Shown here piece after piece: positions 32,781 to 49,848 of a DNA stretch of 64,000 nucleotides. The first letter of the stretch is position 1. Each line of letters starts with the position of its first letter. Where the stretch lies: assembly GCA_965217585.1 (NCBI GenBank), contig OZ244561.1, forward strand, positions 2,496,001 through 2,560,000. The letters run 5' to 3'. A program made the translations under genes and the position numbers. Source of the stretch: Candidatus Latescibacterota bacterium. GTDB taxonomy: Bacteria; Latescibacterota; UBA2968; UBA8231. The notes under the pieces were generated by a model. That model was given only the letters and a program-made list of their open reading frames with translations. It had not been told where the DNA came from and made no database searches.

Positions 32781-33890
32781 ATGATCCATACCGCACAAGC
32801 ACTTACCGAACTCGTCGAGCACGCCCTAGACTGCGAGCGCGTTGCCCTAGACACTGAATTTGTTTGGAACCGCACCTATTATCCCAAGTTAGGCGTGATC
32901 CAATTGGCCCTCGCCGGCGACGACTGCCACCTAATTGACCCGGTGGCGATTGCGGATCTCTCGCCCCTTGGTGCCCTGTTAGAGCACGCGGAGGTCGAAC
33001 TGATTCTCCACGATGCCCAACAGGACCTGGCTATTCTGCGCCGGGTCACGGGTGCCTTTCCGCGCAACGTCTTCGACACCCGCTGCGCGGCCGGGCTTGC
33101 CAATATGAGTTCGACCTCTTCGCTGGCTGATCTCTTGGAGCAGACCCTCGGCGTAGTCCTCGACAAGACCGAGACGCTCACCAACTGGGTCCGCCGCCCT
33201 CTCTCCGAGGACCAGCTAGCTTATGCCATTGAGGACGTGCGCTATCTGCACGAGGCATGCAATGTGTTGCGGGCGCGCGTCGAGAAAATTGGTCGCAACA
33301 CTTGGCTGGCAGAGGAGATGACCGCGTACGACGATCCGCGGCTATACGAGGAGCGAGACCCACGCGAGCAATTCACTCGGGTCAAGGGCGCGGGCCAAGC
33401 TTCTGCGCGCGAGCTGGCCATTCTCCGCGAATTGGCCGCTTGGCGCGAAGAGGAAGCCCAGCGCTGCAACCGACCGCGCAATCACGTACTGACGGACGAA
33501 ACTCTCGTGTTACTAGCTCGGCGCAAGCCCCAATCGCCGGAGGAACTAGGCCGACTCCATGCATTCGGCAATCGCCGCTATGACCGCTACGTCCTCGAGC
33601 AGGTTCACCGCGGCTTGGCCGTCCCCAACGAGGAGTGCCCACCCCGGCCGCGCCGGCCGCACCTCGATAAGGAGGTCGTCGAGCGCAAACTCGCCCAATC
33701 CATGGATTACTTGCGCCGGCAAAGCAACGCGGCGCAGATTGACGCGCCTTTTGTCGCGGCCCGCGCCGAAGTGCGCAACCTAGTCCTCGACTCGGTCGCT
33801 GCCACGCCCGAGGATCATCGCCTCCTGCGCGGGTGGCGGCGCGATTTTATTGGCGAAGCCCTATACGGCATCGCTACTTGCCCTGAGTGA
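32781..33890 (+). CDS. rnd: Ribonuclease D
   Basis: ALDTEF..RTYYP.L..IQ, HDAQQD, W.RRPLS..QL.YA..DV, HRDC domain, GWRR. Confidence 0.92.
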   Translation: MIHTAQALTELVEHALDCERVALDTEFVWNRTYYPKLGVIQLALAGDDCHLIDPVAIADLSPLGALLEHAEVELILHDAQQDLAILRRVTGAFPRNVFDTRCAAGLANMSSTSSLADLLEQTLGVVLDKTETLTNWVRRPLSEDQLAYAIEDVRYLHEACNVLRARVEKIGRNTWLAEEMTAYDDPRLYEERDPREQFTRVKGAGQASARELAILRELAAWREEEAQRCNRPRNHVLTDETLVLLARRKPQSPEELGRLHAFGNRRYDRYVLEQVHRGLAVPNEECPPRPRRPHLDKEVVERKLAQSMDYLRRQSNAAQIDAPFVAARAEVRNLVLDSVAATPEDHRLLRGWRRDFIGEALYGIATCPE

Positions 33891-36800
33891 AGCGTGCCTC
33901 ATAACTGGCCCTGAGCCGGGCTGAGCCTCGCCAGATCAGACATAGCGGCACGACCAACACCACCAGTACCGATGAAGATATTAGCCCCCCTGATGTGCCC
34001 AAGGCCAAGGTGTACCAGATGTCGCCCCGGTCTCCTTGCAACAACAACGGCAAAAACCCGGCGATCGTCGTCAGAGTGGTAATGAAAATGGGGCGCAACC
34101 GCTGGAAAGCAGCGCGAGTAACCGCGTCCTGCGGAGCCGCCGGCTGTGCTCGTAACGCTCTAGAAATATGGTGTACCAGCAAGATGGAATTGTTCACGGA
34201 GATACCCATCAAAAGCAGCAGCGAAGCATATCCACCTTGGTCGAAAGAAGCGCCCGACAAGTAAAACCCGGCACCCACCCCGATCAGGGCTAGCGGCAGG
34301 GCGAGCAACACCAGCAACGGCCAAGTCCAAGACTCAAAGAGCGCCGCCGCGATCATCCAGACTAAGACGACCGAGAGCAGCACGATGAGGGCCAGTTCTC
34401 GTTCTTCCTCTTCACTGAAAACCGACATCATATAACCCCGCGACAAACTGTATCCATAGGGTATGGGCGTGTGGTCCATTATATCCTGTACCACCATTTC
34501 TGCGTAAGAGAAATCGCCCAAGATCGTAAACCCGACCTCTTTGATGTAACGCTGATTTTCTCGCTTGATCTCAGGCCGTACATAGTGCTTTTGCAAGCGG
34601 CTGACATCGCCGATGCGGGCACCCCCTTCCGCCAATAAGGCTTGATTCAAGCGGCGCAGATCGGTTCGGCGGGCCGTTGTATCGGCAACAGCCGCCATAT
34701 ACTCCCGACGGTCCACGTACAGCTTGGCGACCGGGGCCCCACCGTCGAGCCGGGTTTGTATCTGATCGGCGACCGCAGCGTGGTCAAGGCCCAGCGGGAC
34801 GGTCTTGGCGTGGTCAATCTGGGCTAGCACCTCGTAACGAGGTGGCCCGTAAGCACGGTCGATGTGAATATCCTTGATCCGCCGTGATCGCCGATCCTGC
34901 AATCGCTCGGCGATTCCGGTGGCGATTTGGCCTACCTGCCTAAAATTGTAGCCCTTTACTTCCAGTCGCCTCGACGCGCTCAAGCCACCTCCTAGCCCTC
35001 TCCCCTCCGGTTCCAGATCCTGGCCCCATATCCGAAAGCCGACGCCGCCGATGTTGTGCCCGTAAGCCGCTAGATTGTCGTATAGCACGTAGGGAACATT
35101 CGACTTTTTGTACTCTTCCTTTAGCAAAACCTGCACAAGCCCGTACCGGCCGTAGGTCTGGGTGACGATCCCCCTGATGTACGGGGAAAACAAGAGTAGC
35201 TGCTTTTCAATGCCCTGCAACAGTCCGTCCAGTCGGCTGATGTGTGCGTTGTGCGGCATTTCGAGGAAGACGATCAGCGAAAACCCTTCGGTTACTTCTC
35301 GCAAGAGGTGTCTATACGATGACTCTTCTATCCGGTGGCCAACGTCGCGGAACAGAAAGTAGGTCGCGCCGCCCAACACACTAAAGAGCGCCGGTTTAAC
35401 CACGCCCAGTAGCGGGTTGCCCCACACCGTGTTGTAGAGCTGTGTCCCCCCATCGTAGAGCCGTCCCCAAGCGGAGTCTGATCCCTCTTCCTTTTCAGGC
35501 ACCAACACTTTTCTGCCGAATGTATCTAGCGCCGCGAGACTATCCCTATCGGCGAGCCATTGTTGGTACTCTTGACGTGTCTCAATTGCACCTGTGAGCC
35601 TCCCTTTTTCCACCAACCCCCGGCGTGTTCCCACTTCGTCTGGCAAGAGCCATAGTGGGACGCCTACCATCCACGCGACCAGCCCTAGCACCCACCCTTT
35701 GCGGCGGACGCAAAAGGTGAGAACTCTGCGGTACGCCCCATAGAGGCGGCGGTCTGCTGCTGGGGATGGCGCAACCCGGCGGACGCTTAGATAAAAAAAC
35801 GTCGGAATCAGGGTGAGGGCGAAGACCAAGGCTAGGATGAGCGTCAGGCCTAACGACACTACAAAGGGCGTGAAATGTCGCTGCAATTGGGCAGAGAGGA
35901 AAAACACCGGCAGAAAAGCCCCTAAAGTGGTTAGGTTGGAAACCACTAAGGGGTACATCACCTCGCGCAGACCCTCGGCTACGGCTTCTTTTAGATCCCC
36001 TTCCGGACCGCAGTCCTCGGCGCGGCGGTGGATGTAGTCATAGACGACGATGGCGTTGTCTATGATAATCCCAAACCCTATGGTAAAACCGGCCAGGGTA
36101 ATTAGGTTCAGTGGTAGGCCGAAGAGGAAAAACAGGCTGAACGCCCCCAGCACAGAAAGCGCGACCGAGCACAGGATCAACACTGGGGTCTGGAGCCGTT
36201 TGAATACCCCGATCAGCACTAGCGCGATACACAGGACAGAGAAGGCGGACCGGCGCAGCAAGAAGTGGAGGTCGTCCTCGATGCGAGCGCCCTCGTCGTT
36301 GAGCACGACAATCTCGACCTCCTCCGGCAACTGCGCGGCGAGCGCGGCGAGCTTGGTCCGCACCCGCCGAGAGGTGCCGATCATGTCGCTACCGGCCATC
36401 TTTTCGACCTGCACGGCAATACCGTTGCGCCCGTTGATCCGGTACAGGACCTGCGGATCGCTAGACTGGTAGCGGACGGTCGCTACATCCCCCAAGTAAA
36501 GGACGCGCCCGCCCGCCATCCGCTTGAGGGGAATCCGCCTGAGCGCGTCGAGATCCTCAACGCCTCCTTGTAGCTGGATGCGGCTCAGGGTGCTGTGCGC
36601 CTTGGTCGTCCCCAAGGAGCGGGTCTGCATACCCTGCGCCGCCAACGCCGCTCGCAGTGTCCGCAGGTCAATCCCCCAGCGCTGGGCCAAGGCGTGGTCC
36701 AACTCGATGAGGATGCCTTGCTCTCTCCCTCCTTGCACCGAGACCTCTCTGACCCCGGGTACGGACAGCAGCGGGAGCCGCACCTTGTCTTCTACGAACG

Positions 36801-37272
36801 TGCGGAGCGCGGCAGGGTCCTCGCGCCCGAGCACCTGAAAAAGGATAAAGCCGCGCAAATCGCGCAGCAGATCCGGCTCAAAGCGCCGCACCACTGGATA
36901 GGAGACGCCTGGGGGCCGCTGGCGGAAGAACGAGTGGATCTTCTCGTTGAGTTCCAATTCGGCTAGCTGCAAATCGGCCGTGCGGGCAAATTCGGCAGTG
37001 ATATAGGCACTCCCGACCGAGGTGACAGAGCGCAATTCGACCACATCTGGCACTCCCCGCACCAGCGATTCCAACGGGGCCGTGAGCCGCGATTCTATCA
37101 CGACGGCCGAGGCTCCCGGCCAAGAAAGGTTCACCGTCAGCTGGGGTGCGTCGGCTTCTTCCGTAGTGTCGATGGGTATGAGGGGAAAGCAGAGCAGGCC
37201 CATGGCCAGCACAGCCGCACTGGCAACCCCTATGGCCACGGGCCGGTCCAACAATTTGTCGGCTATCCCCAC
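33874..37272 (-). CDS. RND efflux permease (AcrB/AcrD/AcrF family) with a periplasmic insertion
   Basis: GTG 37272; GIIIDNAIVV, SNLTTLGAFLP, RLRPIFITTLTT. Confidence 0.9.
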   Translation of the reverse strand: MGIADKLLDRPVAIGVASAAVLAMGLLCFPLIPIDTTEEADAPQLTVNLSWPGASAVVIESRLTAPLESLVRGVPDVVELRSVTSVGSAYITAEFARTADLQLAELELNEKIHSFFRQRPPGVSYPVVRRFEPDLLRDLRGFILFQVLGREDPAALRTFVEDKVRLPLLSVPGVREVSVQGGREQGILIELDHALAQRWGIDLRTLRAALAAQGMQTRSLGTTKAHSTLSRIQLQGGVEDLDALRRIPLKRMAGGRVLYLGDVATVRYQSSDPQVLYRINGRNGIAVQVEKMAGSDMIGTSRRVRTKLAALAAQLPEEVEIVVLNDEGARIEDDLHFLLRRSAFSVLCIALVLIGVFKRLQTPVLILCSVALSVLGAFSLFFLFGLPLNLITLAGFTIGFGIIIDNAIVVYDYIHRRAEDCGPEGDLKEAVAEGLREVMYPLVVSNLTTLGAFLPVFFLSAQLQRHFTPFVVSLGLTLILALVFALTLIPTFFYLSVRRVAPSPAADRRLYGAYRRVLTFCVRRKGWVLGLVAWMVGVPLWLLPDEVGTRRGLVEKGRLTGAIETRQEYQQWLADRDSLAALDTFGRKVLVPEKEEGSDSAWGRLYDGGTQLYNTVWGNPLLGVVKPALFSVLGGATYFLFRDVGHRIEESSYRHLLREVTEGFSLIVFLEMPHNAHISRLDGLLQGIEKQLLLFSPYIRGIVTQTYGRYGLVQVLLKEEYKKSNVPYVLYDNLAAYGHNIGGVGFRIWGQDLEPEGRGLGGGLSASRRLEVKGYNFRQVGQIATGIAERLQDRRSRRIKDIHIDRAYGPPRYEVLAQIDHAKTVPLGLDHAAVADQIQTRLDGGAPVAKLYVDRREYMAAVADTTARRTDLRRLNQALLAEGGARIGDVSRLQKHYVRPEIKRENQRYIKEVGFTILGDFSYAEMVVQDIMDHTPIPYGYSLSRGYMMSVFSEEEERELALIVLLSVVLVWMIAAALFESWTWPLLVLLALPLALIGVGAGFYLSGASFDQGGYASLLLLMGISVNNSILLVHHISRALRAQPAAPQDAVTRAAFQRLRPIFITTLTTIAGFLPLLLQGDRGDIWYTLALGTSGGLISSSVLVVLVVPLCLIWRGSARLRASYEARFTQGK

Positions 37273-37274
37273 CG

Positions 37275-40200
37275 TCAGGCTTTCTCTCGTATCACCACCG
37301 AGTAGAGGATGGGAATGACGATCAGAGTTAGCAGGGTCGCCAAGGATAGACCACCGACGATGGCCCAAGCCAGCGGGTGCCGCAACTCGGCCCCACTGCC
37401 GCTGGACAAGGCCATGGGCAGGAGGCCGCAAACCGTGGTCAGGGTGGTCATGCAAATGGGCCGGAAGCGCTTTTGTCCGGCTCCCACAATAGCGCCCCGC
37501 AGGTCGCCGTCAGAGCGGAAGCGCGTGTGGATGAAATCGACCTTGACAATCGAGTCGTTCACCACAATACCCACCAGCACAATACACCCCAACAAGGACA
37601 TGATGTTCAGGGTATTATTAGTCGCCCACAACGCGAAAACCACCCCCATGGACGCCAGCGGCACAGCCGCGACGATCACAAAGGGGACGACCAGCGATTC
37701 AAACTGGGCGGCGAGGATGCAGTACACCAAGATCACCGCCAAGGCGACCAGCACGTACAGGTTCCGGTACTGCTCCTGCATCTGTGCGTAGTGGGTTCCG
37801 ATGGCTACCCAATGCCCACTGGGAATAGTTAGGCCATCCAACAGCGCGGCAAGTTTGGTTTGGGCTTCGGCGCGATCAATGCCTTGAAGAGTAGCGGTTA
37901 TCATCGCAGTGCGGGTTTGGTCCTCGCGGTGGATTTCCTCGTAGCCTTGGCTGGGTTTTAGTCGGATGAGTTGGGAAAGGGGAACGTGGATGGTGCGGTC
38001 TTTTCTCCGCACCGGGTACTGTAGGCTCAAGATGCGCTGTGGGTCGAGCTCGTCGGAGTGCCCGGCGCGCACCCGGATGTCGATGCGATCGACAAAATCG
38101 ACGAATTGGGTTGGGGTGCTGCCTTGTACCTGTCGGTTGATGAAATCGGTGAGTTGTTCGATGCGAATGCCATAGTTTATGGCGGCATCGCGGTCGATGA
38201 CGACCTCAAAGGTCCGCTTGCCGGTTCGCAGGTCGGAAACCACGTGCGCAAAGCCGGCGGTCTGCCGCATAAAGTCTGCGATCTGTTCGCTCAGAGCCGC
38301 CAAGGTCTCTAGCTGAGGCCCGACGATCTTCACGTCGAATAGGGTCTGCTGTCTCTGAAACAACTGTTCAAAGACCGACTCTGGCTGGGCGAGCGTCAGA
38401 GTTAGCTCGCCAAAGGCCGCGAAGGCCGCTTCCAATGTTCGCTCCACCTCCGCGCTCGGCACGTCCTCGGCGAGCTCAAGGTCGAGGACCGCCTTATTCA
38501 GCCCGGGCCGATACCCCCCGGCTACGCTCTCGCGGACGATGCCCACCGATGCCAACACCGAGCGGACGCCGGCCTCTTGCCGCAGGCGGTGCTCCAGCCG
38601 GGCAACCGCCGCCGAGGTGGCCGACAAACTCGCTTCTGTAGGCAACTCCACGTGCAAGACGAGATGCCCTCGATCCACATCCGGCATAAGCTCCCGATCC
38701 AGTCGCACGGCCAGCCAGCCACTCAAGGCTAGTAACACAAACGCGGCCACCATCACCGTATAGCGGTGGCGCAGGGCACCGGCCAAGACCCGTTCATAGA
38801 GGGCAAAGAACGCGCCGAACACCTGCTGAAAAAGGTCAATGGTCCAAACCAACGGGGCCGCCAGCCGGTAGAGGGCACGGACCGGACGTCTCTTCCAGCT
38901 TCTAGAAGAGAGCATGGGCAGCAGGGTAATGGACACCAGCAGGGAAGCAGCCAGCGCCAAAGAGATGGTGACGGCCTGCTGGTAAAAGAGCGCCCCGGCC
39001 ATTCCTTTGACGTACACTAAGGGCAAAAACACGGCCATGGTGGTCAGGGTCGAGGCGGTAATGGCCAGCCCTACTTCCTCGGTGCCGCGCACGGCCGCTT
39101 CGCCGGGGGCATGGCCCAACTCGCGGTGGCGGTAGATGTTTTCCAGCACCACAATCGAGTTATCGACCAAAATCCCAATGCCCAGCGCCAGCCCGCCCAG
39201 CGACACGATGTTAAAGTGGATATCGAGGAAGTACATGCAGATGAAGGTGGTGACGATGGAAACAGGTATGGATAGGCCGACGATGAGGGGATTTTTGAAG
39301 TCTCTGAGGAAGTAGATGAGGGTGATAAAGGCGAACACGCCCCCTAGGTAGAGCGCCTCGACCACACTGTCGATGGACGCTTGGATAAACTCGGCTTGGT
39401 CAAAGACCGGTCGCACCGCAAAGTCGGGATAGTCCAGCGAGAACTGGTACAGATCGCCGTACACCTTCTTCGAGGTCTCTACCGTGTTGGCCCCGGCCTC
39501 CTTAAAAAGATACAAGGTGATGACCTCGTGGCCGTTCAAACGGGTGTACCCGCTCCGTTCCGCGTAGCCTTCCTCAATGCGAGCGACCTCCTCCAAGCGA
39601 ATCTGTTTAGGCTCCTGTCGCACGGGAATCCGGCCGATCTCCGCAAGGTTGGTAAACTCCGCCTGTATGCGCAGCGGAAACTGAGCCACGCCGTCGCGGA
39701 TGGTGCCGCCCGAATGCGTAACATTGAACTGCGCGAGACTCTGTTCCACCGCGGCAAAGCCAATGTTGTAGCGCCGACATTTCTCCACATCGAGGGATAC
39801 TTGGATTTCGCGGTCGAGACCGCCGGCCACCTGCACGTAGGCCACGCCGTCAATCTGTTCGAGGCGGCGTTTGATGACGGATTGGGCGACCTCCTTTAAC
39901 TCCATCAGGGCTTGATGGTAATCGCGCGTGGACTGGGGGTGCTCAATCCGGTCGCCGGTGACGATTAGGGTCATTACGGGTGCTGAGGAAGGGTCAAAGC
40001 GCAAGATGGTGGGGCGTCCGGCGGCTTGCGGCAGTCCGGCCCGGTCGAGACTGCTGCGGGCCTCAATGAAGCCCAAGTCCATGTCGCTGCCCCAGCGGAA
40101 CTCGACCTCGACCAACGAGAGGCCATCCTGCGAAACCGACCGCAGGCGGCGCACACTGCTGACCGAGCTGAGGGCGGCTTCAAGGGGACGAGTGACGTAT

Positions 40201-40382
40201 TCTTCTACATCGCGGGCGTTCAGGCCGAGACAGTCCGTGCGGACCACGAGCCGGGGAACGTCAATGTCGGGTAGGAAGTCCACGCTCAGGCGGAAGAGCG
40301 AATAGACCCCCAAAAGGAGCGCGGCCAGAAAGCAGACGGTGGTCGCCACGGGCCGCTGGACGGCAAAGCGGACGAGGCGCAC
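37275..40382 (-). CDS. RND efflux permease (AcrB/AcrD/AcrF family)
   Basis: RPVAT, GILVDNSIVVLENI, STLTTMAVFLP, RFRPICMTTLTT. Confidence 0.93.
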   Translation of the reverse strand: MRLVRFAVQRPVATTVCFLAALLLGVYSLFRLSVDFLPDIDVPRLVVRTDCLGLNARDVEEYVTRPLEAALSSVSSVRRLRSVSQDGLSLVEVEFRWGSDMDLGFIEARSSLDRAGLPQAAGRPTILRFDPSSAPVMTLIVTGDRIEHPQSTRDYHQALMELKEVAQSVIKRRLEQIDGVAYVQVAGGLDREIQVSLDVEKCRRYNIGFAAVEQSLAQFNVTHSGGTIRDGVAQFPLRIQAEFTNLAEIGRIPVRQEPKQIRLEEVARIEEGYAERSGYTRLNGHEVITLYLFKEAGANTVETSKKVYGDLYQFSLDYPDFAVRPVFDQAEFIQASIDSVVEALYLGGVFAFITLIYFLRDFKNPLIVGLSIPVSIVTTFICMYFLDIHFNIVSLGGLALGIGILVDNSIVVLENIYRHRELGHAPGEAAVRGTEEVGLAITASTLTTMAVFLPLVYVKGMAGALFYQQAVTISLALAASLLVSITLLPMLSSRSWKRRPVRALYRLAAPLVWTIDLFQQVFGAFFALYERVLAGALRHRYTVMVAAFVLLALSGWLAVRLDRELMPDVDRGHLVLHVELPTEASLSATSAAVARLEHRLRQEAGVRSVLASVGIVRESVAGGYRPGLNKAVLDLELAEDVPSAEVERTLEAAFAAFGELTLTLAQPESVFEQLFQRQQTLFDVKIVGPQLETLAALSEQIADFMRQTAGFAHVVSDLRTGKRTFEVVIDRDAAINYGIRIEQLTDFINRQVQGSTPTQFVDFVDRIDIRVRAGHSDELDPQRILSLQYPVRRKDRTIHVPLSQLIRLKPSQGYEEIHREDQTRTAMITATLQGIDRAEAQTKLAALLDGLTIPSGHWVAIGTHYAQMQEQYRNLYVLVALAVILVYCILAAQFESLVVPFVIVAAVPLASMGVVFALWATNNTLNIMSLLGCIVLVGIVVNDSIVKVDFIHTRFRSDGDLRGAIVGAGQKRFRPICMTTLTTVCGLLPMALSSGSGAELRHPLAWAIVGGLSLATLLTLIVIPILYSVVIREKA

Positions 40383-40391: not shown

Positions 40392-41552
40392 CTAGCGCTG
40401 AACGACCACGACCTTGGCGTCGTGGGCCAGATTGAAATGTCCGGATACAATCAGTTCCTCGCCTTCGCTAAGCCCTTCTTCGATCTCAATAAAGTCGTCG
40501 TTTTCGAGGCCGGTCCGCACATAGCGCCACTTGGCCTGACCAGCTTCATGCACGAAGACCAGCGCGCGGTCATCGCGGATGAGCATGGCGTCGCGCGGGA
40601 TGAGCAGCCGCTGTTTAAAAACTCTGGTTTCCACGGCGACTTGGGCGAACATGCCCGGCTTGATGCGGTGGTCGGGATTGTCGATTTCAATGTGAATACT
40701 ACAGGTCCCGCTTTCGGCATCAACTACCGGGCTGATGGCCTTGATGATGCCAGCAACCTGCTCGCCGGGAAAGGCGTGGGGCCGGATGGAGACTTGGGCA
40801 CCGAGTTGCACCAGCCGTAATTCGCTCTCCAAAATGGGGACATCGAGCCGCAGCGGGTCCAGCGCCACCAACCGCATCAAGGTGCGGCCTTGCGCGACCA
40901 TGCCACCCGGGCTGACCTCCACCTGGGTGATGTAGGCGTCAAACGGTGCCTTGATGACCGTGTGTTCTAAGTCTAACTCAGCCCTTCTCAACTCTAGCCG
41001 GTTACTGGTCAGCCCAGTCGTGCTGGCGATCCACTGCTTGGGCGAGTGATCGGTAAACAGGGCGAGGGCATCGCGGTCGTTTACTTCGGCGGTGTCGGCA
41101 ATGGCTTCGACGTCGTCTTGCAGGAGACGGCCCCGCTTCATCTGGCTGCTCGACAGGGCAATCGCGGCATATTCGCGCAACGAGCGAGTCATCTGGTCCT
41201 TGGCCTGTAGATAGGCAAGGTGGTAGGATTCGGCATCGATTTGCAGAATGGTGTCGCCTTGGCTGACGAAGTGGCCTTCCTCGGCATGCAGGCTGCTCAC
41301 CGGCCCCGACACTTGGGCGGTGAGGTCGGTCTCAACCCAAGCCTTAAAGACACCACTGGCCAAAATCTGCTGCACGAAGTCGCGCTTCTGCACCGTTTGC
41401 GTGGCCACGGGCGTGGCTGGCGGTTCAAGTTCGGGCAATGTGGTAAGGGATGGACTGTCGTCAGTTGAGGATGGAGCGGATTCCCCCACAATCGCATACG
41501 CTAATGCACCCAGTCCGAACAACGTTAGGGCGATGTAGAGGATTCGTTTCAT
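40392..41552 (-). CDS. RND periplasmic adaptor (membrane fusion protein)
   Basis: N-terminal TM; VSG.V......EG.FV.QG lipoyl half, IKAPFD, KPGMFA. Confidence 0.92.
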   Translation of the reverse strand: MKRILYIALTLFGLGALAYAIVGESAPSSTDDSPSLTTLPELEPPATPVATQTVQKRDFVQQILASGVFKAWVETDLTAQVSGPVSSLHAEEGHFVSQGDTILQIDAESYHLAYLQAKDQMTRSLREYAAIALSSSQMKRGRLLQDDVEAIADTAEVNDRDALALFTDHSPKQWIASTTGLTSNRLELRRAELDLEHTVIKAPFDAYITQVEVSPGGMVAQGRTLMRLVALDPLRLDVPILESELRLVQLGAQVSIRPHAFPGEQVAGIIKAISPVVDAESGTCSIHIEIDNPDHRIKPGMFAQVAVETRVFKQRLLIPRDAMLIRDDRALVFVHEAGQAKWRYVRTGLENDDFIEIEEGLSEGEELIVSGHFNLAHDAKVVVVQR

Positions 41553-41628: not shown

Positions 41629-42633
41629 TTATCCACCCGTCACCTCGGCCAAAGCCGCCAAGGCAGTCCGCTCCCGTCCTGCGAGGGCACACAGCCGCGA
41701 CTGAATGCGCGGCAGTACCCTTGTTGCATCCTTGACCGTCCCTTTGAAACACAAATTCTTCACCACAAACCAGCCCTGGGAAATGGACTCAAATTCCCGG
41801 CTGAGGTCACCTAGACGCGGAAGTTGGCAGACCTGAGCAGCATGGTGAAGAAAGCGGCCATGACCTTCGCGGAGCAAGGCGATCTCTAGAAGCAACTCAG
41901 CGCACCGTCCCAAGCGCGCTTTGAGGAACGGCTTTTCGTACTCCGCCCATGCTCCGGCATCCTCGGCTAGTTGCTCAACGCCCTTCAGTCCCACGGCGAG
42001 ATTCGCTTGATCGCTAGACGCGGACATACTGCGCAGGTTGCGTTGCAGAAGGGCGCGGGCGGCTTCGGGCCGCAGGGTAAGCCGTCTCCTCGGCACCTCC
42101 GGCCAGAACCAGTTGTATCGGTCTTGACTCTCTCCGGGAATCGCGCTCACATCCCAACTGGCAAGGAACAATTCGAGCGGGATACTCCGCGCTGAAGGCT
42201 GCCACGGCGAGGGATCGATGAGGTGAACGGTAGCGGCCTCGTCGTCGTACCCAGCGGCGATATACTGGTGGTCTGAATGGCGCAGACGGGGATAGAGGCC
42301 GGCTTGGGCCAGCGGGAACACGTCCAAACTAATGGCCACCGGGGTATCCGCGTCTATTAGCTTTTTCACTTCATCCCACGCGCTTTGCCCATCGTTCGCG
42401 TTGCGGTTGAACAGCGCAATGCCAAAGGCTTTGAGCGTATCGGGCAGGGGCACGACCCGTCCTTGGATAGTGAACCGTTCGCCTTCCTCTCGGCAATAGA
42501 TAAAGTCCCAATGGGAAAAACAGGGCACCGATGGTTCGCATTCATAGAAGCGCAACAGGCTATCCAACACCACATAGACGCAGTTGTAGCGTCGGTGAGT
42601 GCAAAAAGGGATGCCATCAATGTGTTTTTTCAT
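41629..42633 (-). CDS. BtrH N-terminal/DUF4872-like papain-fold (C39-like) protein
   Basis: YNCV near the N-terminus; LIDADTPVAISLD; H...AGYD......LIDP (Cys-His-Asp); helical C-terminal domain. Confidence 0.7.
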   Translation of the reverse strand: MKKHIDGIPFCTHRRYNCVYVVLDSLLRFYECEPSVPCFSHWDFIYCREEGERFTIQGRVVPLPDTLKAFGIALFNRNANDGQSAWDEVKKLIDADTPVAISLDVFPLAQAGLYPRLRHSDHQYIAAGYDDEAATVHLIDPSPWQPSARSIPLELFLASWDVSAIPGESQDRYNWFWPEVPRRRLTLRPEAARALLQRNLRSMSASSDQANLAVGLKGVEQLAEDAGAWAEYEKPFLKARLGRCAELLLEIALLREGHGRFLHHAAQVCQLPRLGDLSREFESISQGWFVVKNLCFKGTVKDATRVLPRIQSRLCALAGRERTALAALAEVTGG

Positions 42634-42650
42634 ACAGATGTCTCTAAGGG

Positions 42651-43916
42651 CAGGGCAATCGCATTATAACTGTCCATGTGCCAATAGGTTCGCCAAATAT
42701 TTGTGGTCCCACCCGGCCTTGAGCCGTTTGGTTTGCATGCCGGCTTTGGTCGTTTTGTCTTGCTGGAGTAGATTGAGCGCGATGTGGCGTATAACGGCCA
42801 TATTTTCGGGGCCATGCCCCCGGCGTATGCGGGACTGATCTTCGTTGAAGACGACATCGAGGATCCAGTGTAATGAATTTTCAATGGCCCAAGGACCGCG
42901 CACGGCCTGTCCCAATCGTTGGGCGTTGTTGTCCAGGGTGGAGATATAGTAGCGTCGTTCGACCGAAACGCTATCGCCGCGGTGCCGGGTGGCCTCGACC
43001 ATACCGAACAGGCGTAAGCCCGGCCAGTGAGCATGATCGGCAAAAGCCTCAATCTGGTTGGTGGTCCAGTACTGCCGCGTTTCTCGACGCCCGTGGTTTT
43101 CGTCCTGAGTAAACCAATAATCTACGGTGGGGTCGGCGTGGAGTTTGGAGTCGGAACGGTCAAAGAGTTGTTGAAGATGGGCGTGGAGTTTGGGTTGATT
43201 CTCCTTGACGGCCAGCACGTAGTCGGCCTCTTGTTCGACGACCTGTTCGGCCGTGCTTTTATGACACCCCAAGGCATCGGGGGTGACCAGGCAGCCTTTG
43301 AGGTCTAAAACACGTAATAATTCGGGGATGAGCGCAATTTCTTCGAGGGCTTCTTCACCATGGAATTGCCCCAAGACCAGCCGATTTTTTACCGCCCAAG
43401 CATGCACCCTGTGGATGGCGGCTTGGCCCGAGTCTGTATCGTAGGAGCGGCGCAGTGTCTTGCCATCCAGCGGCACGATCTCGCCCTCGTCGGCCAACAG
43501 GGGCGTCAGCGATTGCACCCAAGCGGTAAAACAGTCTTGGAAATGCCAAGGCGAAATACGGGCCAACACACGACCGAAGGTATCATGCGAGGGGATGCCG
43601 TTCGGCACGGCTAGAAAGGTCTTAAGCCAGTCGGCTTTAGCCCGGCCAAATTCGGCGATCGCCACCCAGTTGTCGGCCCCACAAATGGAGCCGCACACCG
43701 CAATCATGAGAATATCAATCAAGCGATGCGCCCGACAACGCTCCATACGCGGGTCGGGGATATCGGCCAAATAATCCAGCAACCCCGAAGACGATGAGGA
43801 CATGAAGAAACACTCCAGGCAAGAGGGAAATGGGAGGACATGAACCTAAGCTCCATAGAACGGCCAAAAGTAACATAACCGCATGGTAAAAATCAACTTA
43901 TAATGCGATTGCCCTG
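42651..43916 (-). mobile_element. ISAs1-family insertion sequence
   Basis: Perfect 19-bp IR cagggcaatcgcattataa (42651-69; 43898-916); no target duplication. Confidence 0.92.
42664..43803 (-). CDS. ISAs1-family transposase
   Basis: DPR, GIPSHDTFGRV, DGKTLR, VKENQ, HGR.E.R, W.IENSLHW.LDV; several motif substitutions (e.g. RGPW for RGHW). Confidence 0.9.
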   Translation of the reverse strand: MSSSSSGLLDYLADIPDPRMERCRAHRLIDILMIAVCGSICGADNWVAIAEFGRAKADWLKTFLAVPNGIPSHDTFGRVLARISPWHFQDCFTAWVQSLTPLLADEGEIVPLDGKTLRRSYDTDSGQAAIHRVHAWAVKNRLVLGQFHGEEALEEIALIPELLRVLDLKGCLVTPDALGCHKSTAEQVVEQEADYVLAVKENQPKLHAHLQQLFDRSDSKLHADPTVDYWFTQDENHGRRETRQYWTTNQIEAFADHAHWPGLRLFGMVEATRHRGDSVSVERRYYISTLDNNAQRLGQAVRGPWAIENSLHWILDVVFNEDQSRIRRGHGPENMAVIRHIALNLLQQDKTTKAGMQTKRLKAGWDHKYLANLLAHGQL

Positions 43917-44159
43917 CTAGTCTAGCTTATAGAAGGGCGCACATTACTCTCTAAAGGGGTCATCAGATATGTGATGACCTTCTACTACCTCTAAAAGCGA
44001 CGCGTCTGTTAATTGGGCGAGCGGTGAATCCTCGAACCCCTCCGTGCTTATCCCGAGGGGAGGGAAATGTCTGAACACTAGTTTGGTAAAAAAGATAACG
44101 GAAAACTGTTCCTTTCCATATATGGGATAATGGCATTGGAGAATAGTATTACGCTCGTT

Positions 44160-45404
44160 CTGATTCCCTGACACTTTTGAAAAAAGGGCTGCTGCCCATA
44201 GATTACGGCCCTCTTTTAACCGACCCCGATCAAAGGAGTGCCTTATGAGCAGCAGCGAACAGGTATATACTCGATTGATGACCACCTTGCAAGCGATAGT
44301 GCCGGTATCGAATCGAAAACAGTTGGCTAACTGGGCTTGGATCGCGGTGGCTATGTTCCAAGCTAAGTCGATTGCCTTGAGCCAGATCGCTGTTTTTCTG
44401 CCGGGCTCGGCCAAAGCCGAGTCGCGGGTGATGCGGTTGCGCCGTTGGCTGTCGAATCGGCAGTGTTCGGTGTGGGCACTGTATCGCCCGCTGCTTATGC
44501 ATGTGTTGGCTCCGTTTAAGAACCGAGCGGTTGATGTGATCTTGGATGGGACGTTGGTGTTCGGCAATCGCATGCAGATTTTTCGCCTGTCGTTGGTACA
44601 TAAGAATCGAGCCATTCCTCTGGTATGGAAGGTCATCCCCGGTAAAGGCAACACGCGCGTGTCGCAACTAGAAGGGATGGTGACCCAAGCCGCTGAAGTG
44701 CTTGACGGGTTGGTTGCGTCGGTGACCTTGCTGGCCGATCGGGGCTTCCGCGATCATCAGTGGGCGGCGTTATGTGTGCAACTCAACTGGCATTACGTCC
44801 TTCGCCTACCGGCCAACACGTGGGTCAACAGGCCCGATGGGACCGCCGGGCGCATCGATCAGTTGGCTATACCCAAAGGCCAGCGCCGCTTTTATCCACA
44901 GATTACACTCACGAAAGAGGCCACGCTGACCTGTTCGCTATCGGTGGGCTGGACCCAACCGACGACCAAGCAACCCGCCGAGTGGATCGCCGTCATCTCC
45001 GATCAACCCGCCGGCCCCGCCCGCCGGCGTGCCTATAGCAAGCGGATGCACATTGAGCAGAGTTTCAAAGAAGATAAATCCGGCGGCTTCGATCTGGATC
45101 ATACCCGCTTGCTCAATCCCCAACGCCTTGAACGCCTGCTGCTGGCGGTGGCGTTGGCCACCTTATGGGCGCACGAGATAGGCGAATAGGTCCTCCGGGG
45201 AGGCCCCGCCCGCCGACAGACTATCGATGCGGGCACCCGGCGCGAACTGAGTGTGTTTCAATTGGGCCTCCGATGGCTCAAACGGTGTATCGCCCTCCAA
45301 CTCCAGCGCTTGCCAGCGTTCAAAGGACGGTTGGCACCCACGGGAATAAAAACTGTTGTTAAAAATAAGACGACCAGCAGAAAGTAAAAGTGTCAGGGAA
45401 TCAG
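44160..45404 (+). mobile_element. IS4-family insertion sequence (1245 bp)
   Basis: Perfect 19-bp IR ctgattccctgacactttt; 9-bp TSD acgctcgtt at 44151-59 and 45405-13. Confidence 0.93.
44245..45387 (+). pseudogene. IS4-family transposase with an in-frame TAG at 45187
   Basis: LDGT, ADRGF, YSKRMHIEQSFK (YREK); frame continues past TAG through RELSVFQLGLRWL to TAA 45387. Confidence 0.85.
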
Positions 45405-45954
45405 ACGCTCGTTAACAAGCAGGATTAGGGGAGTCTGTTTGAGAAATTCATCTAGTGAAGTGTTGTCTTCTTTTATTATCCCAAACTGATAATCTAACCG
45501 AAAGGCGCGTTTGAACTGCCAAAGCCTTTCCAGAGGAATATCCTTGGAAAGGGCGTATATAGGAAATTCATTGGGATCTGTCAGATTGTCACGTATATGC
45601 TGTAAACCATTCAACACCAACTCAAGACAAGGCTGACACGATTTCGGGTCAAATAATAGCACTAAACCACCCTTCTTCTTGGAAAAATCAGTATATACTG
45701 TATCACCACGATCTGTCTGTATAGAGACTACAGGGAAGTGTTGTCCAATCTTCTTAGTCGAGTTGTAAATGTTGAGCAAAAATGTCTTATTTGTCTGATT
45801 GTTTGCAAGATCAAATAAATAGAGCTTGCCGATCCAAGCCACGGATACCGTTATGCCGATAAGTAATAATACGCTCGTTATACCCAATAACTGGGCAGAG
45901 GTAAGACGTTTCATAGATTGTGTCTCTGTTGTACTCTACATTTACCTCAATAAC

Positions 45955-47252
45955 TTGAATTCGACAGGTAGGTTGATATTTAGGCTCGAACAGGCATCGG
46001 AGTCTCCCTATTTTGGGATAGCTTGATTCACCGCCATGGATCATCTACCCCAGGGAAACTCCGATGCTGAACCTGACTCGCTTGCCTGTGAACCTTCGTT
46101 ATTTTTTGCGTGGGACTCAACATTTTTTTCGTCATCGCCATCATCTGGTGTTCTGTTGGAGTATGACGCTGTTGTTAATCTATCAAGATAAAGCGACGCT
46201 GTGTGGTTTAGCCCGCTTGGGGCCTAACCATATAGCGGAATGGCACTTACGTCGCTTGCTGAGTGCGACCTACTGGAGTTGGCGGTTGCTGTTGGGGTAC
46301 TTGGTTGATGCGGTGATCGCCGGGCTGCCACCGGCGGAAGACGGTCGGGTGTTGGTGATCGTCGACGGGACCTACAAAGCCAAGGTGGCCAAGAAACATC
46401 CGTTGGTGCGCAAAGCCCGCGCCGATGGCTATAGTCCCTTTCTGTGGGGGTTTGAAGTGATCCTGGTCATGCTGCAGTGGGGCAATTATCGAATCCCTAT
46501 CGATTTCGAGTTGGTTCGGCGTAAAGAAGACCCGGCCTATCAGAAGCCCAATGTGTTGTTTCGTCAGATGCTGACCGCCTTGGTACCACCGGCTTGGGCC
46601 CAGCAAGTGATCGTGGTCGCCGATGCCGGGTTTCCCGCTAAAGAAACGCTGCACTTGATCCAGCAACGAGGCTTCTTTTTCGTCATGAGTCTGCCCCGCA
46701 CCTGGAAGTTTGAAGACGGCCATACGCTCAAAGATTGGGTCCATCATACGCGCCATACCTGTTATCGAAAAATCTGGTTTCGTCCGCACGGCTCCCGTCG
46801 GCGGGTCTATTGGGTCTACCGCGGTCGTAAACGCCTGCGACACATCGGAGATGTCACGTTGGTCTTGAGCAAGAAACGGCGCAACGATTCGCCGAAACAA
46901 ACCAAAATCCTGGTGACCAATCTACCGGACGTGACCGCAGGCCAACTCGTCGTGTTGTATACCCGCCGCTGGCACGTGGAACTGCTCATCAAAGAATTGA
47001 AAGGGGCCACCGGATTAGGACAAGCCCAGGTGACCAAGCAGACCCAACGAGTCGAACGCTCCGTCGCGTTGTCCGTTATGGCCTACTTGGTTTTGATCCA
47101 TTTTCGGCAGCGGGATATTCCCCACCAAGGACCGTGGAGTGCGTTTACCCTCAAGCGAAATTTTGCTTGGGAGTGTGCGCGAAAACAGATTGAACATAAC
47201 CAAAAACGAACCTACACAAAGGCCGCCTAAGACAACTACCTGTCGAATTCAA
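45955..47252 (+). mobile_element. IS4/IS701-like insertion sequence
   Basis: 17-bp IR ttgaattcgacaggtag (45955-71; 47236-52); direct repeat ctcaataa at 45946-53 and 47253-60. Confidence 0.88.
46064..47230 (+). CDS. DDE transposase (IS4/IS701-like)
   Basis: VDGT, ADAGF, LVTN, YTRRWHVELLIKELK. Confidence 0.9.
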   Translation: MLNLTRLPVNLRYFLRGTQHFFRHRHHLVFCWSMTLLLIYQDKATLCGLARLGPNHIAEWHLRRLLSATYWSWRLLLGYLVDAVIAGLPPAEDGRVLVIVDGTYKAKVAKKHPLVRKARADGYSPFLWGFEVILVMLQWGNYRIPIDFELVRRKEDPAYQKPNVLFRQMLTALVPPAWAQQVIVVADAGFPAKETLHLIQQRGFFFVMSLPRTWKFEDGHTLKDWVHHTRHTCYRKIWFRPHGSRRRVYWVYRGRKRLRHIGDVTLVLSKKRRNDSPKQTKILVTNLPDVTAGQLVVLYTRRWHVELLIKELKGATGLGQAQVTKQTQRVERSVALSVMAYLVLIHFRQRDIPHQGPWSAFTLKRNFAWECARKQIEHNQKRTYTKAA

Positions 47253-47262
47253 CTCAATAAGG

Positions 47263-47300: not shown

Positions 47301-47360
47301 AAAAGACAGGGACTAATCTCAAAAATAAATTAAGATGCCTTTAAAAAGGATGAAGGCCCA

Positions 47361-47585
47361 TCAGTCGCAGTCTACTTTGGTCCACGATCCGCTGTCCCGA
47401 TCCCCTGGAGTGCAATTATGCTTGTTCCCAGAGAAACACTCCCAATTCCAAGCATACCATATTGTAAGACATCCGTTTTCGTAGTCAGAATCAAAATCAT
47501 CTCCTCCTACCCAACGACCTTCGGGACTGTAGGTACAAATGAGATCCGTACGCCTGTACGGGGTCTTCTTGGTAAGATTAACCAT
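47361..47585 (-). CDS. Putative double-glycine-leader Cys/Trp-rich peptide precursor (74 aa)
   Basis: GAAAGGA RBS; 28-aa leader ending VGG; 46-aa core with 4 Cys and 4 Trp; co-oriented with the cluster. Confidence 0.65.
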   Translation of the reverse strand: MVNLTKKTPYRRTDLICTYSPEGRWVGGDDFDSDYENGCLTIWYAWNWECFSGNKHNCTPGDRDSGSWTKVDCD

Positions 47586-47635
47586 AACGCATTCCTTTCG
47601 TTTGAGGGATTGAGGTGTGTTCCCTGTCTTATAAT

Positions 47636-48889
47636 TTATCTTTTAACGAACAGCTCATATATGTCCACTGTGCCATTGGACTTCTCCGCTGCTTCTACTG
47701 GTGGTGGCCTATAAACATAAATCTGGCTCTTCCAAGATGCTATTCTTCCGCCTATCCCGCTTGCTTTAGCTTTAACTACAGTTCCCTGAGAATCTTTTTT
47801 GATACCTTCAAGAGATTGATATGCAGCACCATTGAGCGAGTATGCCTCAATCAATTCCGACGAATCCGAAGTCACCAAATCATAAAGCGTCCATTCATTT
47901 GGTGACTGTGGTCTCTCACGAGAAGTGTGTGAGATTAATAGGTAACGATCATCTATCAGGACCATGCTAGTCGCCCGATTGATTCCACTCATTATTAGGG
48001 AGAAATCGCCCCGATCTGTTGATCCACAGTCTAGGCCGTGGTACTCCCTCGATAAGAATTTGAAATCTGGCTGCTGCTTCTCAAGGGTGAAGACGTTATA
48101 ACTAGGCACAAGAGCACCGAATTGCCGCAGGAGATCACCGGTGGAGGCATCGATCTCTTTTACCATGTAGTCATTGGCCTCCAGATAATACAGACGATTT
48201 TGCATAGTATTATAGCGTAGTTGAGCAGGGTTACGTAGGTAGCATGAAATGATCTGATCTGTCTTACTAGAGAGAGGTATGGTATATTCTACTGCCCTAT
48301 TGAGGCCAGTAATTTTCTGTATCTGTATGATAGATCCACCATGTTTATTCTCCATAACGATCAGTGCATCATCTCGGTTGATCAACAAGCCTCTACATCC
48401 AACCCAGCTCATCTTATCATCAAGGTACTGACCTTGTCGATTATAATGCAATAATTGGCCGTATATAGGATCCATGATATAGACATCTCCCTTGGAATCC
48501 ATAGCCATCGCCTCAGCACCCCCATATTCCCCAGGCCCCTTCCCAGTGCGTCCGAAAGACCGGATATATTTGCCATCGTTCAGGCTGAACTCGTGCGCCC
48601 TACGAGATATCCGATCTGTAAGGAGTAAGGAACTATCAGGAGTAATGCCCATCCAGCGTATCCTGCCAATACCCGGAACTGCCTTATCAAATACCAATTC
48701 GACTGTACGCTTGAGTTCAAGGCCCATCTCCCCGGCATATTCTACAGGCACTTTGGGAATACTCGACTCGTCTAGCTGCTCCTGCGCCGCAACAGACTTG
48801 ACCCCGCCATAGCCTGCTATCACCCACGTAATGAGCATGGCCCTGAAGAAGATCAAGACGTTATTAAAGGTGAAAGTACTGGAGATCAT
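47636..48889 (-). CDS. Exported 6-bladed beta-propeller (TolB-like/NHL) protein (alternative start 49006)
   Basis: Hydrophobic N-terminus ending VAA-QEQ; FGRTGKGPGEY and DSKGDVYIMD propeller motifs; low GC. Confidence 0.8.
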   Translation of the reverse strand: MISSTFTFNNVLIFFRAMLITWVIAGYGGVKSVAAQEQLDESSIPKVPVEYAGEMGLELKRTVELVFDKAVPGIGRIRWMGITPDSSLLLTDRISRRAHEFSLNDGKYIRSFGRTGKGPGEYGGAEAMAMDSKGDVYIMDPIYGQLLHYNRQGQYLDDKMSWVGCRGLLINRDDALIVMENKHGGSIIQIQKITGLNRAVEYTIPLSSKTDQIISCYLRNPAQLRYNTMQNRLYYLEANDYMVKEIDASTGDLLRQFGALVPSYNVFTLEKQQPDFKFLSREYHGLDCGSTDRGDFSLIMSGINRATSMVLIDDRYLLISHTSRERPQSPNEWTLYDLVTSDSSELIEAYSLNGAAYQSLEGIKKDSQGTVVKAKASGIGGRIASWKSQIYVYRPPPVEAAEKSNGTVDIYELFVKR

Positions 48890-49061
48890 GAACCGACTCT
48901 TTCTCAATGTTACAGGTGCTCGCGGAATCCAAACCGCTATCGGCAGGAATACCCTTCGCAGATTAAAGATAGCCACCGATTCGGTGTGCTTATATAGAGA
49001 GAACATCTTATTTCCTCCTTCAGAAAAGCTGATTTTGCGACCCAAGCGTCCCGGAGCCTCC

Positions 49062-49706
49062 CTACTCCAGCGACACAATTCCTTCTCTGATCGCGTATTT
49101 GGTCAACTCAGCCACCCCGTTCATGCCGAGCTTCTTCATGAGATTCTGGCGATGATTGCCCACAGTTTTCTCGCTCACTACGAGTTGATCGGCTATTTGC
49201 GGGGTCGTTTTTCCCTCGGCGATAAGCTGCAGCACCTCTCGCTCGCGGGATGTCAGGAGGGGCGAGGCGGCACCATCGGCGAGGCGTTGCGCGTAATCGG
49301 CGATGAGAGGGTCAATCAATTGCGGGCTCACGTACTTGCGGCCGGCCTGTACCTCCCGGATCGCTTCCACCACCTCACGGGCCGCCGCCTCTTTCAGCAC
49401 ATAGCCCAAAGCCCCCACCTGCAACATGGCGGCCACAAAGCGCTGGTCCGAGCGCGACGACAGCGCCACCACCTTCACGCTCGGCTCCCTATCCCGTATC
49501 TGCCGAGTCGCCTCAATGCCATTCAAGTCGGGCAGGCCAATATCCATGACCACAATGTGGGGTAGGTGCTTGAAGACCAAGGCGACGGCTGTACGGCCGG
49601 CCCCGGCCTCGGCGACTACCTCAATATCGCTTTCTTTCTCACACAGCGAACACACCCCTTGGCGCGTAACTTCGTGATCGTCCACAAGCAAGACCCGCGT
49701 ACTCAT
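49062..49706 (-). CDS. NarL/FixJ-family response regulator (REC plus LuxR HTH)
   Basis: LVDDH, MDIGLP..NG, GYVLK, LTSREREVLQLIAEG..T..IA..L..S.KTV..HR.NLM.KL. Confidence 0.95.
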   Translation of the reverse strand: MSTRVLLVDDHEVTRQGVCSLCEKESDIEVVAEAGAGRTAVALVFKHLPHIVVMDIGLPDLNGIEATRQIRDREPSVKVVALSSRSDQRFVAAMLQVGALGYVLKEAAAREVVEAIREVQAGRKYVSPQLIDPLIADYAQRLADGAASPLLTSREREVLQLIAEGKTTPQIADQLVVSEKTVGNHRQNLMKKLGMNGVAELTKYAIREGIVSLE

Positions 49707-49820
49707 ATAAACCGACTCTTTCTATGGGAATATGGCTCGTGGGAAACGCCGCGACCTATTCACAGCATTTGGCACGGACCTTGAGGAGGAACACCGGCTA
49801 GCCGTTCCGAAGAGGCCGCA

Positions 49821-49848
49821 AACATAACGGGTATTCATACGTTGTCAA
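49821..49848 (-). promoter_or_regulatory. Sigma70-like promoter TTGACA-N16-TATGTT for the regulator/cluster
   Basis: Perfect -35 at 49848-43; -10 at 49826-21, the same hexamer as the 12461/15322 promoters. Confidence 0.55.

Follow-up and report, generated by a model that had tools for sequence, protein, structure and literature searches.

The 64,000-nucleotide stretch of a Candidatus Latescibacterota genome analyzed here (contig OZ244561.1, positions 2,496,001 to 2,560,000; hereafter the window) holds, between positions 33,874 and 49,848, a minus-strand gene run around a small cysteine-rich peptide, and this run is a transposon-damaged, decaying copy of a conserved Latescibacterota cluster. 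It represents a real, recurrent and apparently undescribed peptide system, seen here as a broken copy; in the intact Latescibacterota loci a processing module of the CLI_3235/Qhp type is joined to a propeller, redoxin and twin resistance-nodulation-division (RND) module related to the NVEALA loci of Bacteroidota. Gene content, the peptide family, the protein folds and a deletion in the window are the solid parts of this account. On them we build a model, to which we give a probability of roughly 0.55, in which an S8 protease, an ATP-binding cassette (ABC) exporter, a redoxin, a beta-propeller and the RND pair would serve polymorphic, acidic, disulfide-bonded peptides, every enzymatic step being read from sequence and gene context.

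Gene content of the locus and its relatives

An earlier note on this DNA, made from its letters alone, had described the gene order, and this was borne out, with each gene lying where it had been placed: a NarL-type regulator, a DUF5128 propeller, a 74-aa open reading frame (ORF), a hairpin, a CxxC redoxin-like gene, a BtrH_N+DUF4872 gene, a membrane fusion protein (MFP) and two RND permeases follow one another on the minus strand. Pfam and NCBIfam named the regulator, the propeller, three transposases, the BtrH_N+DUF4872 protein, the RND adaptor and both RND permeases, and gave no match for the 74-aa ORF (Pfam, E 0.1) or the redoxin-like ORF. The low-GC island reported earlier was likewise confirmed, the propeller, peptide and redoxin having a GC content of 0.40-0.48 against 0.58-0.60 in the regulator, BtrH-like gene, MFP and RNDs.

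47636..49006, minus strand: six-bladed beta-propeller of the NHL type (DUF5128), its N-terminal segment hydrophobic and its start either 49006 or 48889; proposed cognate partner of the peptide
47529..47585, minus strand: precursor leader, 19 aa, basic, ending I-C-T-Y, without a hydrophobic signal region; proposed S8 cut after Tyr19
47361..47528, minus strand: core, 55 aa, hypervariable, acidic, with four Cys and four Trp; a GG lies inside it
45405..45914, minus strand: 5' part of a membrane-anchored thioredoxin-like protein (the redoxin), CxxC and Thr-Pro kept, truncated by an insertion sequence (IS) of type IS4
43944..44159, minus strand: 3' part of the redoxin gene
41629..42633, minus strand: BtrH/AziU3/CtaG/CcbD-fold protein with Cys18-His122-Asp140, a proposed carrier-dependent transacylase, orphaned
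40392..41552, minus strand: RND periplasmic adaptor (MFP), TIGR01730 above cut-off
37275..40382, minus strand: RND permease 1 (RND1), grouping with RND1 of a Bacteroidota NVEALA locus
33874..37272, minus strand: RND permease 2 (RND2), divergent type, likely GTG start at 37272, grouping with RND2 of a Bacteroidota NVEALA locus

Recurrence of these genes around RND homologues, which had been suggested as a check, was observed. We tabulated 35 regions, 29 of which hold a peptide by a strict pattern and one further (G014c) by another search. A propeller is present in all 29, a redoxin in 28, a fusion protein with an S8 domain (the S8 fusion) and an acyl carrier protein (ACP) in 27 each, an ABC exporter in 25, a rhodanese gene in 23, the BtrH-like gene in 20, the twin RND in 19, MauE in 14, a MacB-type permease in six and a radical S-adenosylmethionine (SAM) gene in five, some of the absences being contig or fetch edges.

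The precursor peptide family

The 74-aa ORF (47361-47585) is a genuine peptide gene, as proposed earlier: it has a ribosome-binding site and belongs to a family of at least 65 distinct peptides. A family profile built on 15 aligned neighbours gave 35 matches among 1.84 billion representatives, 33 of them short proteins (some being the inputs); the other two, long repeat proteins, were dropped from the family. Family peptides occur in 12 of 168 genomes of the phylum (11 of these 12 had supplied the profile), with only one in the host genome, and loci anchored on the redoxin yielded further subfamilies. The ESM Atlas gave no usable match for the peptide.

The leader ends in [VIL]-x-[AGT]-[YQ] in 64 of the 65 distinct peptides, and at residue 19 in 58. 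Leaders carry a charge of about +3 and share a mean pairwise identity of 39%, while cores carry about -7 and share 22% (28 pairs); the cores are 24-65 aa long, 56 of 64 have an even number of Cys, and there is no invariant Trp in the alignment. No signal h-region was detected: the hydropathy maximum is 0.28 in the window peptide and does not exceed 1.29 in any of 28 peptides, whereas six NVEALA peptides reach 2.6-3.3. The GG at residues 27-28, earlier taken as the end of a GG leader with a 46-aa core behind it, is not the leader end: only eight of the 65 family peptides have a GG in residues 15-35, and residues 20-74 (55 aa) are the more likely core.

A hint of transcription comes from RNA run X21, the source of which is a relative of about 96% identity; its contigs lie over the peptide (depth 262), the propeller (26) and the redoxin (24 and 12), with only short patches over the MFP and RND1 region; such contigs show neither level nor strand, and the library may hold DNA. 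RNA run X12 matched the locus almost only at IS sequence. Where the source of an RNA run is named, it is a sponge metagenome.

A distinct group of precursors, class C, was seen at L150:4497 and 8107 (-), L151:10489 and 13891, L107:4581 and 15374, L149:12243 (-) and L152:7569 (-). These share a near-identical 19-aa leader ending V-E-A-Q and have cores of 24-28 aa with 4-6 Cys, often with a CC end; each lies upstream of a propeller, and RND2 is split into two ORFs in class C loci.

Loss of the probable processing genes from the window

The three IS elements reported earlier all have terminal inverted repeats and further copies elsewhere in the genome.

45946..47252, plus strand: IS701/IS4-like element (transposase 46064-47230) with inverted repeats and 10 genome copies, inserted at the hairpin's foot; run X5 shows a joint free of it
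44160..45404, plus strand: element of the IS4 family that interrupts the redoxin gene, with inverted repeats of 20 nt and a target duplication of 9 nt
42650..43917, minus strand: ISAs1 element replacing 5,158 bp present in locus L073, by collinear comparison
42630..42647, minus strand: last codons of a deleted AziU2-like gene, overlapping the start of the BtrH-like gene

Contigs of DNA run X5 join across the IS4 and IS701-like elements (44150 to 45405 and 45945 to 47253); its joint from 43916 to 44038 is weak, with 28 letters on one side. Close orthologues of RND1 were taken from a search of 61 genomes, and the closest intact locus, L073 (G022), whose RND1 shares 96% identity, runs collinear to the window but has 5,158 bp in place of the 1,268-bp ISAs1 element. 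The lost segment encodes a 578-aa ABC exporter without a C39 domain, a rhodanese-like protein, the S8-DUF1611 (TIGR04066) fusion, an ACP and a 207-aa AziU2-like protein. Thus removal of the IS elements, on which the earlier note relied to restore the run and to plan an IS-free reconstruction, would leave these five genes absent, and the IS4 element cuts the redoxin gene besides. The earlier statement that no ABC transporter is present stands for the window and falls for the intact loci, which have one, although without C39.

The host genome, 94.6% complete by markers, holds no evident second copies of the lost genes: its best S8 match is 33% over 140 aa, its best ABC match 33% over the full length, and neither the ACP nor the 207-aa protein has a match at E 1e-3. 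Because the genes for the proposed protease, acylation and ABC steps are missing and the redoxin is truncated, the window copy most likely makes no mature product. It may persist as a propeller and efflux protection module. In two relatives, G025 and G007a, the peptide and the enzymes are gone and just the propeller(s), the MFP and the RNDs are left, and in G054a five full-length propellers accompany one or two peptides; this retention and the spare propellers suggest a protective role for the propeller/efflux part. An extreme remnant was seen in G007 at L048:12830-15235, at the same insertion site beside an RNase D-like gene, where the end of the BtrH gene is fused to fragments of RND1 and RND2.

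The probable processing module

The S8 domain of the deleted fusion scores 155 bits on QhpE (cut-off 165), with its Asp/His/Ser motifs intact and without signal or pro-region, and on TIGR04066 (cut-off 200) its C-terminal half reaches 118 bits. Subtilisins prefer a hydrophobic P4, a small P2 and an aromatic P1 residue, which fits the leader end. By analogy with QhpE, which takes off a 28-residue leader ahead of export by an ABC transporter (PMC7876137), the S8-TIGR04066 fusion is the likely leader peptidase of the intact loci. The 578-aa ABC protein of L045 has ABC_membrane and ABC_tran domains only, without C39.

A related arrangement is annotated in Clostridium, where the CLI_3235 precursor, with an 18-aa leader ending I-E-A-Y, lies beside TIGR04066, an ACP-like gene and an S8 gene. 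CLI_3235-type TIGR04066/S8/ACP homologues occur in 27 of the 29 regions, below cut-off (118 of 200 bits), and were not found in the host genome. The leader-end motif, which may resemble the leader end of PapA, is absent from the accessible part of the text of PMC9413430.

Among 63 loci around the S8 fusion the propeller is present in 19 by BLAST and in 22 after a profile search, and several of the others have HlyD and ABC genes and encode longer peptides that are poor in Cys and share the leader end; hence this processing module is a general one, reused for different cargo. This second system type was seen at L098:7107-7589, L113:7288-7716, L117:9782-10198, L119:8793-9152, L123:8653-9057 and L131:7448-7885, with the leader end, the S8-TIGR04066 fusion, longer Cys-poor precursors and HlyD, ABC, TPR, CAAX-protease, GNAT and BtrH-like genes; propeller and RND genes are absent from it. 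On a Bacillus plasmid (L155:6647-13557) there are an ABC gene, an ACP, a pair of 44-aa precursors whose basic leader is similar, an S8-TIGR04066 fusion, a DUF692 enzyme and a BtrH-like gene. Radical SAM/SPASM genes are found in a minority of loci (L086:2275-3882, L144:15311-16750, L146:2333-3832), which are candidates for thioether-cross-linked versions of the same peptides.

The BtrH-like protein and its carrier-protein neighbours

The BtrH-like protein had been put forward as a stand-alone C39-like protease that removes the leader, a role that its structural model does not favour, since its whole-length fold match is to carrier-protein-dependent acyltransferases/ligases. The model (predicted local distance difference test, pLDDT, 93) aligns with AziU3 at Z 27.7 (root-mean-square deviation, rmsd, 3.3, 310 aligned), with CcbD at Z 24.2 (rmsd 4.3, 306 aligned) and with CtaG at Z 22.9 (rmsd 4.7, 286 aligned), against C39-like peptidases in one domain only, at Z 10.6 or less (rmsd 4.5, 149 aligned). 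It combines a papain-like domain with a helical domain and Cys-His-Asp, the traits by which CtaG/BtrH-like ligases are defined (PMC12865890), and Cys18, His122 and Asp140 are retained in the nine closest rows; a sequence search of the PDB returned nothing meaningful. From the model, the protein is probably not a protease. Carrier proteins supply the acyl groups for CtaG, BtrH and AsbE, which are ligases of the papain-like kind (PMC12865890).

The deleted 207-aa neighbour matches the AziU2 fold (E 4e-10, model pLDDT 64), so the intact loci encode an AziU3/AziU2-like pair beside the ACP; in the ESM Atlas this protein appears in Actinomycetota/Bacillota clusters only, and among the 29 regions its gene is present in nine. 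That the ACP/AziU-like module acylates the freed N-terminus of the core is a tentative proposal, which we would sooner bet against than for. At L119:12246-14960, directly after an S8 fusion, a 904-aa fusion protein unites a BtrH-like domain, a carrier domain and a condensation domain of the non-ribosomal peptide synthetase (NRPS) type.

Propeller, redoxin and RND pair

By sequence, the closest solved relatives of the propeller are eukaryotic NHL propellers. Peptide and propeller recur as tandem cassettes, and a metagenome scan with one redoxin found one locus, in the order propeller-peptide-redoxin; the CxxC of the redoxin is invariant in 13 of 13 rows. Core identity is correlated with identity of the adjacent propeller (rho 0.39, permutation p 2e-4, 28 pairs). 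In G013 the RND1 and BtrH proteins are 94% and 90% identical to those of the window, but the propeller only 41% and the redoxin 43%, which on these sequences we read as a cassette swap on a conserved RND backbone.

Co-folding of peptide and propeller, another check suggested earlier, gave 0.54 for the core against 0.01 for the best control (runs of 0.54, 0.60 and 0.18; contact agreement at least 23%, partner pLDDT at least 62). Of 157 solved complexes 116 attained the mark used, as did two of 215 mismatches; 18 of the solved complexes and both mismatches did so at 0.60 or below. Binding of a propeller to its own core is thus weakly supported by these models.

In a tree of 22 rows the RNDs of the window each group with their counterpart in the Bacteroidota locus G199 (96/99 and 100/99), apart from the other RND pairs of the host; the tree holds one Bacteroidota pair and has long branches and skewed composition. 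As G199 carries NVEALA peptides among propellers, a redoxin-like gene, an MFP and two RNDs, the resemblance to Bacteroidota loci that had been noted earlier is upheld by both locus content and tree. The RND pairs of 48% identity also have peptides and propellers, which lie downstream of them. In loci L141-L147 an approximately 830-aa permease of MacB/FtsX type stands beside each propeller, with no twin RND in the stretch read, and several of these loci have glycosyltransferase and UDP-sugar dehydrogenase genes.

Regulatory and flanking features

49062..49706, minus strand: NarL/LuxR-type response regulator, by family match
48867..49036, minus strand: 5' remnant of a GNAT acyltransferase gene that relatives carry at this position, today read in one frame with the propeller; its DNA is 76% identical to the region where GNAT starts in L082
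47263..47300, minus strand: hairpin, perfect 16 bp, after the peptide gene; fold z -5.7
49821..49848, minus strand: sigma-70-like promoter match, 10/12, not above chance for the region

The hairpin noted earlier after the peptide gene was upheld by its fold score and by a strong hairpin at the same place in three of three relatives tested, differing in sequence in two, and may be an RNA-stabilising or attenuating element. The promoter with which the run had been said to begin fared otherwise: 13 promoter-like matches occur in the region against 9.3 +/- 3.1 in shuffles, within chance, and we dropped it as evidence. Some relatives have a GNAT gene and a PAS kinase, the latter preceding the regulator. 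Both are missing in the window, where the GNAT remnant is fused to the propeller start, and the PAS kinase has no match in the host genome at E 1e-10.

Upstream of the regulator, window:49936-49959 repeats 24 nt of its gene (49273-49296) almost perfectly, possibly as what is left of a duplicated regulator. The DNA directly upstream, on the other strand (window:50096-51271), holds a DUF433/DUF5615 toxin-antitoxin-like pair and a Uma2 nuclease-like gene.

Proposed mechanism and alternative readings

In the model that we favour, a two-component or AraC regulator would drive the cassette and the hairpin would favour the peptide RNA. A cytoplasmic QhpE-like S8 protease, fused to TIGR04066/DUF1611, would cut the 19-aa leader after [VIL]-x-[AGT]-[YQ], as motif, co-occurrence and the QhpE precedent suggest. 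The freed N-terminus might then be acylated by the ACP together with the AziU3/AziU2-like pair, the DUF1611 domain or a GNAT enzyme, which is the weakest step and stays well short of even odds. The C39-less ABC exporter would carry the core into the periplasm; the membrane-anchored CxxC redoxin, with MauE and rhodanese-like partners, would make the disulfides; the adjacent propeller may bind its own core as a chaperone or immunity protein; and the MFP with the twin RND, or the MacB-type permease in other loci, would move the product outward or protect the cell.

Several points weigh against this model. The counts overstate independence, because RND1, the S8 fusion or the redoxin served as anchor for finding the regions and the genomes are related; nine of the 29 regions are without a BtrH-like gene, the twin RNDs are missing or out of view in ten, and no acyl-loading enzyme was seen and no outer-membrane factor identified in the loci. 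The motif count of 64 in 65 is partly circular, the motif having been in the collecting profile and pattern, although its fixed position and genomic context are free of this circularity. On the leader profile 429 of 2,000 shuffles score as high as the CLI_3235 precursor, and TIGR04065 matched one of 38 peptides (E 2.1, 8.6 bits, cut-off 26). The aligned Cys of the BtrH-like protein is missing in the more distant BtrH2 subgroup, and AziU3/U2 is an aziridine synthase (PMC12559475), so the fold does not fix the reaction. Linkage alone could be expected to yield co-divergence of peptide and propeller, and one of the three propeller-core co-fold runs gave 0.18.

A bolder version holds that the intact loci define a new class of ribosomal lipopeptides, with an S8 cut, ACP-dependent acylation of the AziU3/AziU2 type, a disulfide-locked core, a co-evolving propeller escort and heteromeric RND secretion, acting as a polymorphic effector-immunity system of sponge symbionts; taken whole, it is doubtful. 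If true, CtaG-type ligases would have their first ribosomal substrate, and there would be a way into the uncharacterised NVEALA loci of Bacteroidota.

The cores might instead be metal- or redox-binding peptides, metallophore-like or detoxifying, with the propeller as carrier and the RND pair exporting the loaded complex, processing being as in our model. They are indeed rich in Asp, Glu, Cys, Tyr and Trp, with a net charge of about -7, and typical bacteriocins are cationic; however, hypervariable cores, tandem cassettes, swaps and the spare propellers of G054a suit arms-race diversification better, and the dedicated disulfide-type genes suggest oxidised rather than free Cys, which makes this reading unlikely.

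It is quite unlikely, too, that the ACP, AziU2-like and AziU3-like genes make or modify a small molecule and are merely co-clustered with a peptide that is cut and disulfide-bonded but not acylated. The characterised relatives CtaG, BtrH, AsbE and CcbD do act in non-ribosomal pathways (PMC12865890), the 904-aa fusion of L119 joins BtrH-like, ACP and condensation domains, and the AziU2-like gene is confined to nine of the 29 regions; yet the ACP accompanies the S8 fusion in 27 of the 29, as it does in the Bacillus and Clostridium peptide clusters, and no small-molecule assembly enzymes recur in the loci.

We consider it very unlikely that the peptides are ranthipeptide precursors cross-linked by radical SAM enzymes in cis or in trans, for no radical SAM gene was seen in 24 of the 29 regions, the C-x3-[DE] motif occurs no more often than in shuffles (0.72 per core, shuffles 0.79 +/- 0.09) and the best radical SAM match in the host genome is 25% over 193 aa. 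What speaks for it are the radical SAM/SPASM genes of the other five regions, the L086 enzyme scoring 237 bits on PapB (cut-off 340), and the resemblance of the processing genes to CLI_3235 clusters.

A propeller with a small Cys/Trp-rich chain, MauE, a CxxC protein, a QhpE-like protease, an ABC exporter and AraC regulators echoes the mau/qhp operons (PMC7876137), as if propeller and peptide were the large and small subunits of a periplasmic quinoprotein-like enzyme such as methylamine or quinohemoprotein amine dehydrogenase. This is scarcely probable with cores of such variable length (24-65 aa) and low mean identity (22%), no invariant Trp, an NHL six-bladed propeller, and no haem, MauG or QhpG-like gene among the recurring neighbours.

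Lastly, the model of the earlier note, a GG-leader peptide cut by a BtrH/C39-like protease and exported by the twin RND alone, can practically be set aside: it has on its side the GG at 27-28, the papain-type Cys-His-Asp triad and a Peptidase_C39_2 match of 24.3 bits, against which stand a GG in only 8 of 65 members, full-length fold matches to AziU3/CcbD/CtaG at Z 23-28 versus 10.6 or less for C39-like proteins, and the presence in 27 and 25 of the 29 regions of an S8 fusion and an ABC exporter, both lost from the window by deletion, versus 20 for the BtrH-like gene.

Our model connects three uncharacterised families (TIGR04066, DUF5128 propellers and NVEALA-type twin RNDs) in one testable pathway, and adds at least 65 distinct small peptides, unrecognised by Pfam and NCBIfam, with a precise predicted cleavage site and protease. 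As a target for experiments the window copy is worth less, being probably defunct; the naturally intact clusters identified here, L073 (G022), L077 and L081 among them, are testable. Should acylation or RND-dependent peptide secretion be true, they would mean new chemistry for peptides made by ribosomes and modified after translation (RiPPs) and a new export route.

Comparison with known systems

Our literature search, the coverage of which left out TIGR accession terms, supplements and subscription papers, found no description of the cluster, and a genome-mining table could list such loci; terms for NVEALA and the propeller family returned no papers, and the available parts of PMC12186529 and PMC12993501 do not describe this system. 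It lacks features by which GG bacteriocins, NVEALA peptides, CLI_3235 ranthipeptides and quinoprotein subunits are each defined. With GG-leader bacteriocins it shares a short leader, a small Cys-rich core, an ABC exporter and a neighbouring partner gene, whereas it lacks a conserved GG, its ABC protein is without the C39 domain of the PCAT type, and its cores are acidic.

The qhp and mau operons likewise have a QhpE-like protease, an ABC exporter, an AraC regulator, MauE, a CxxC protein and a propeller with a small Cys-rich chain; unlike them, our loci have hypervariable cores, no conserved Trp and no haem subunit or cofactor-forming oxygenase that we could see, and the QhpE score falls just under its cut-off. 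The CLI_3235/CcpM (TIGR04065-TIGR04069) and PapA/PapB ranthipeptide clusters also have the TIGR04066 domain (below cut-off in our loci), an S8 protease, an ACP-like gene, an ABC exporter and, in the annotated example, a short basic leader ending x-A-Y. Here, in contrast, S8 and TIGR04066 are fused, disulfide-type genes, propeller and RND are added, the TIGR04065 cut-off is not reached, and the radical SAM gene is restricted to five of 29 regions and absent from the window locus.

The two-domain fold and Cys-His-Asp triad of the BtrH-like protein, with the adjacent ACP and AziU2-like partner of the intact loci, recall the CtaG/CcbD/BtrH/AsbE ligases and AziU3/AziU2; the known members belong to non-ribosomal pathways, whereas here the setting is a ribosomal peptide cluster in which no loading enzyme was seen.

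Finally, the NVEALA (PF14055) peptides have a hydrophobic signal, which ours lack, having a short leader with S8 and ABC genes instead; PF14055 has no match in the host genome at E 1, and the five G199 regions read contain no S8 fusion, ACP or BtrH-like gene. Nevertheless, the NVEALA locus of G199 likewise has small Cys peptides beside arrays of six-bladed propellers, with a redoxin-like gene, an MFP and two RNDs, and the likeness extends to the V-E-A at the end of the pro-region, common to NVEALA and class C peptides.

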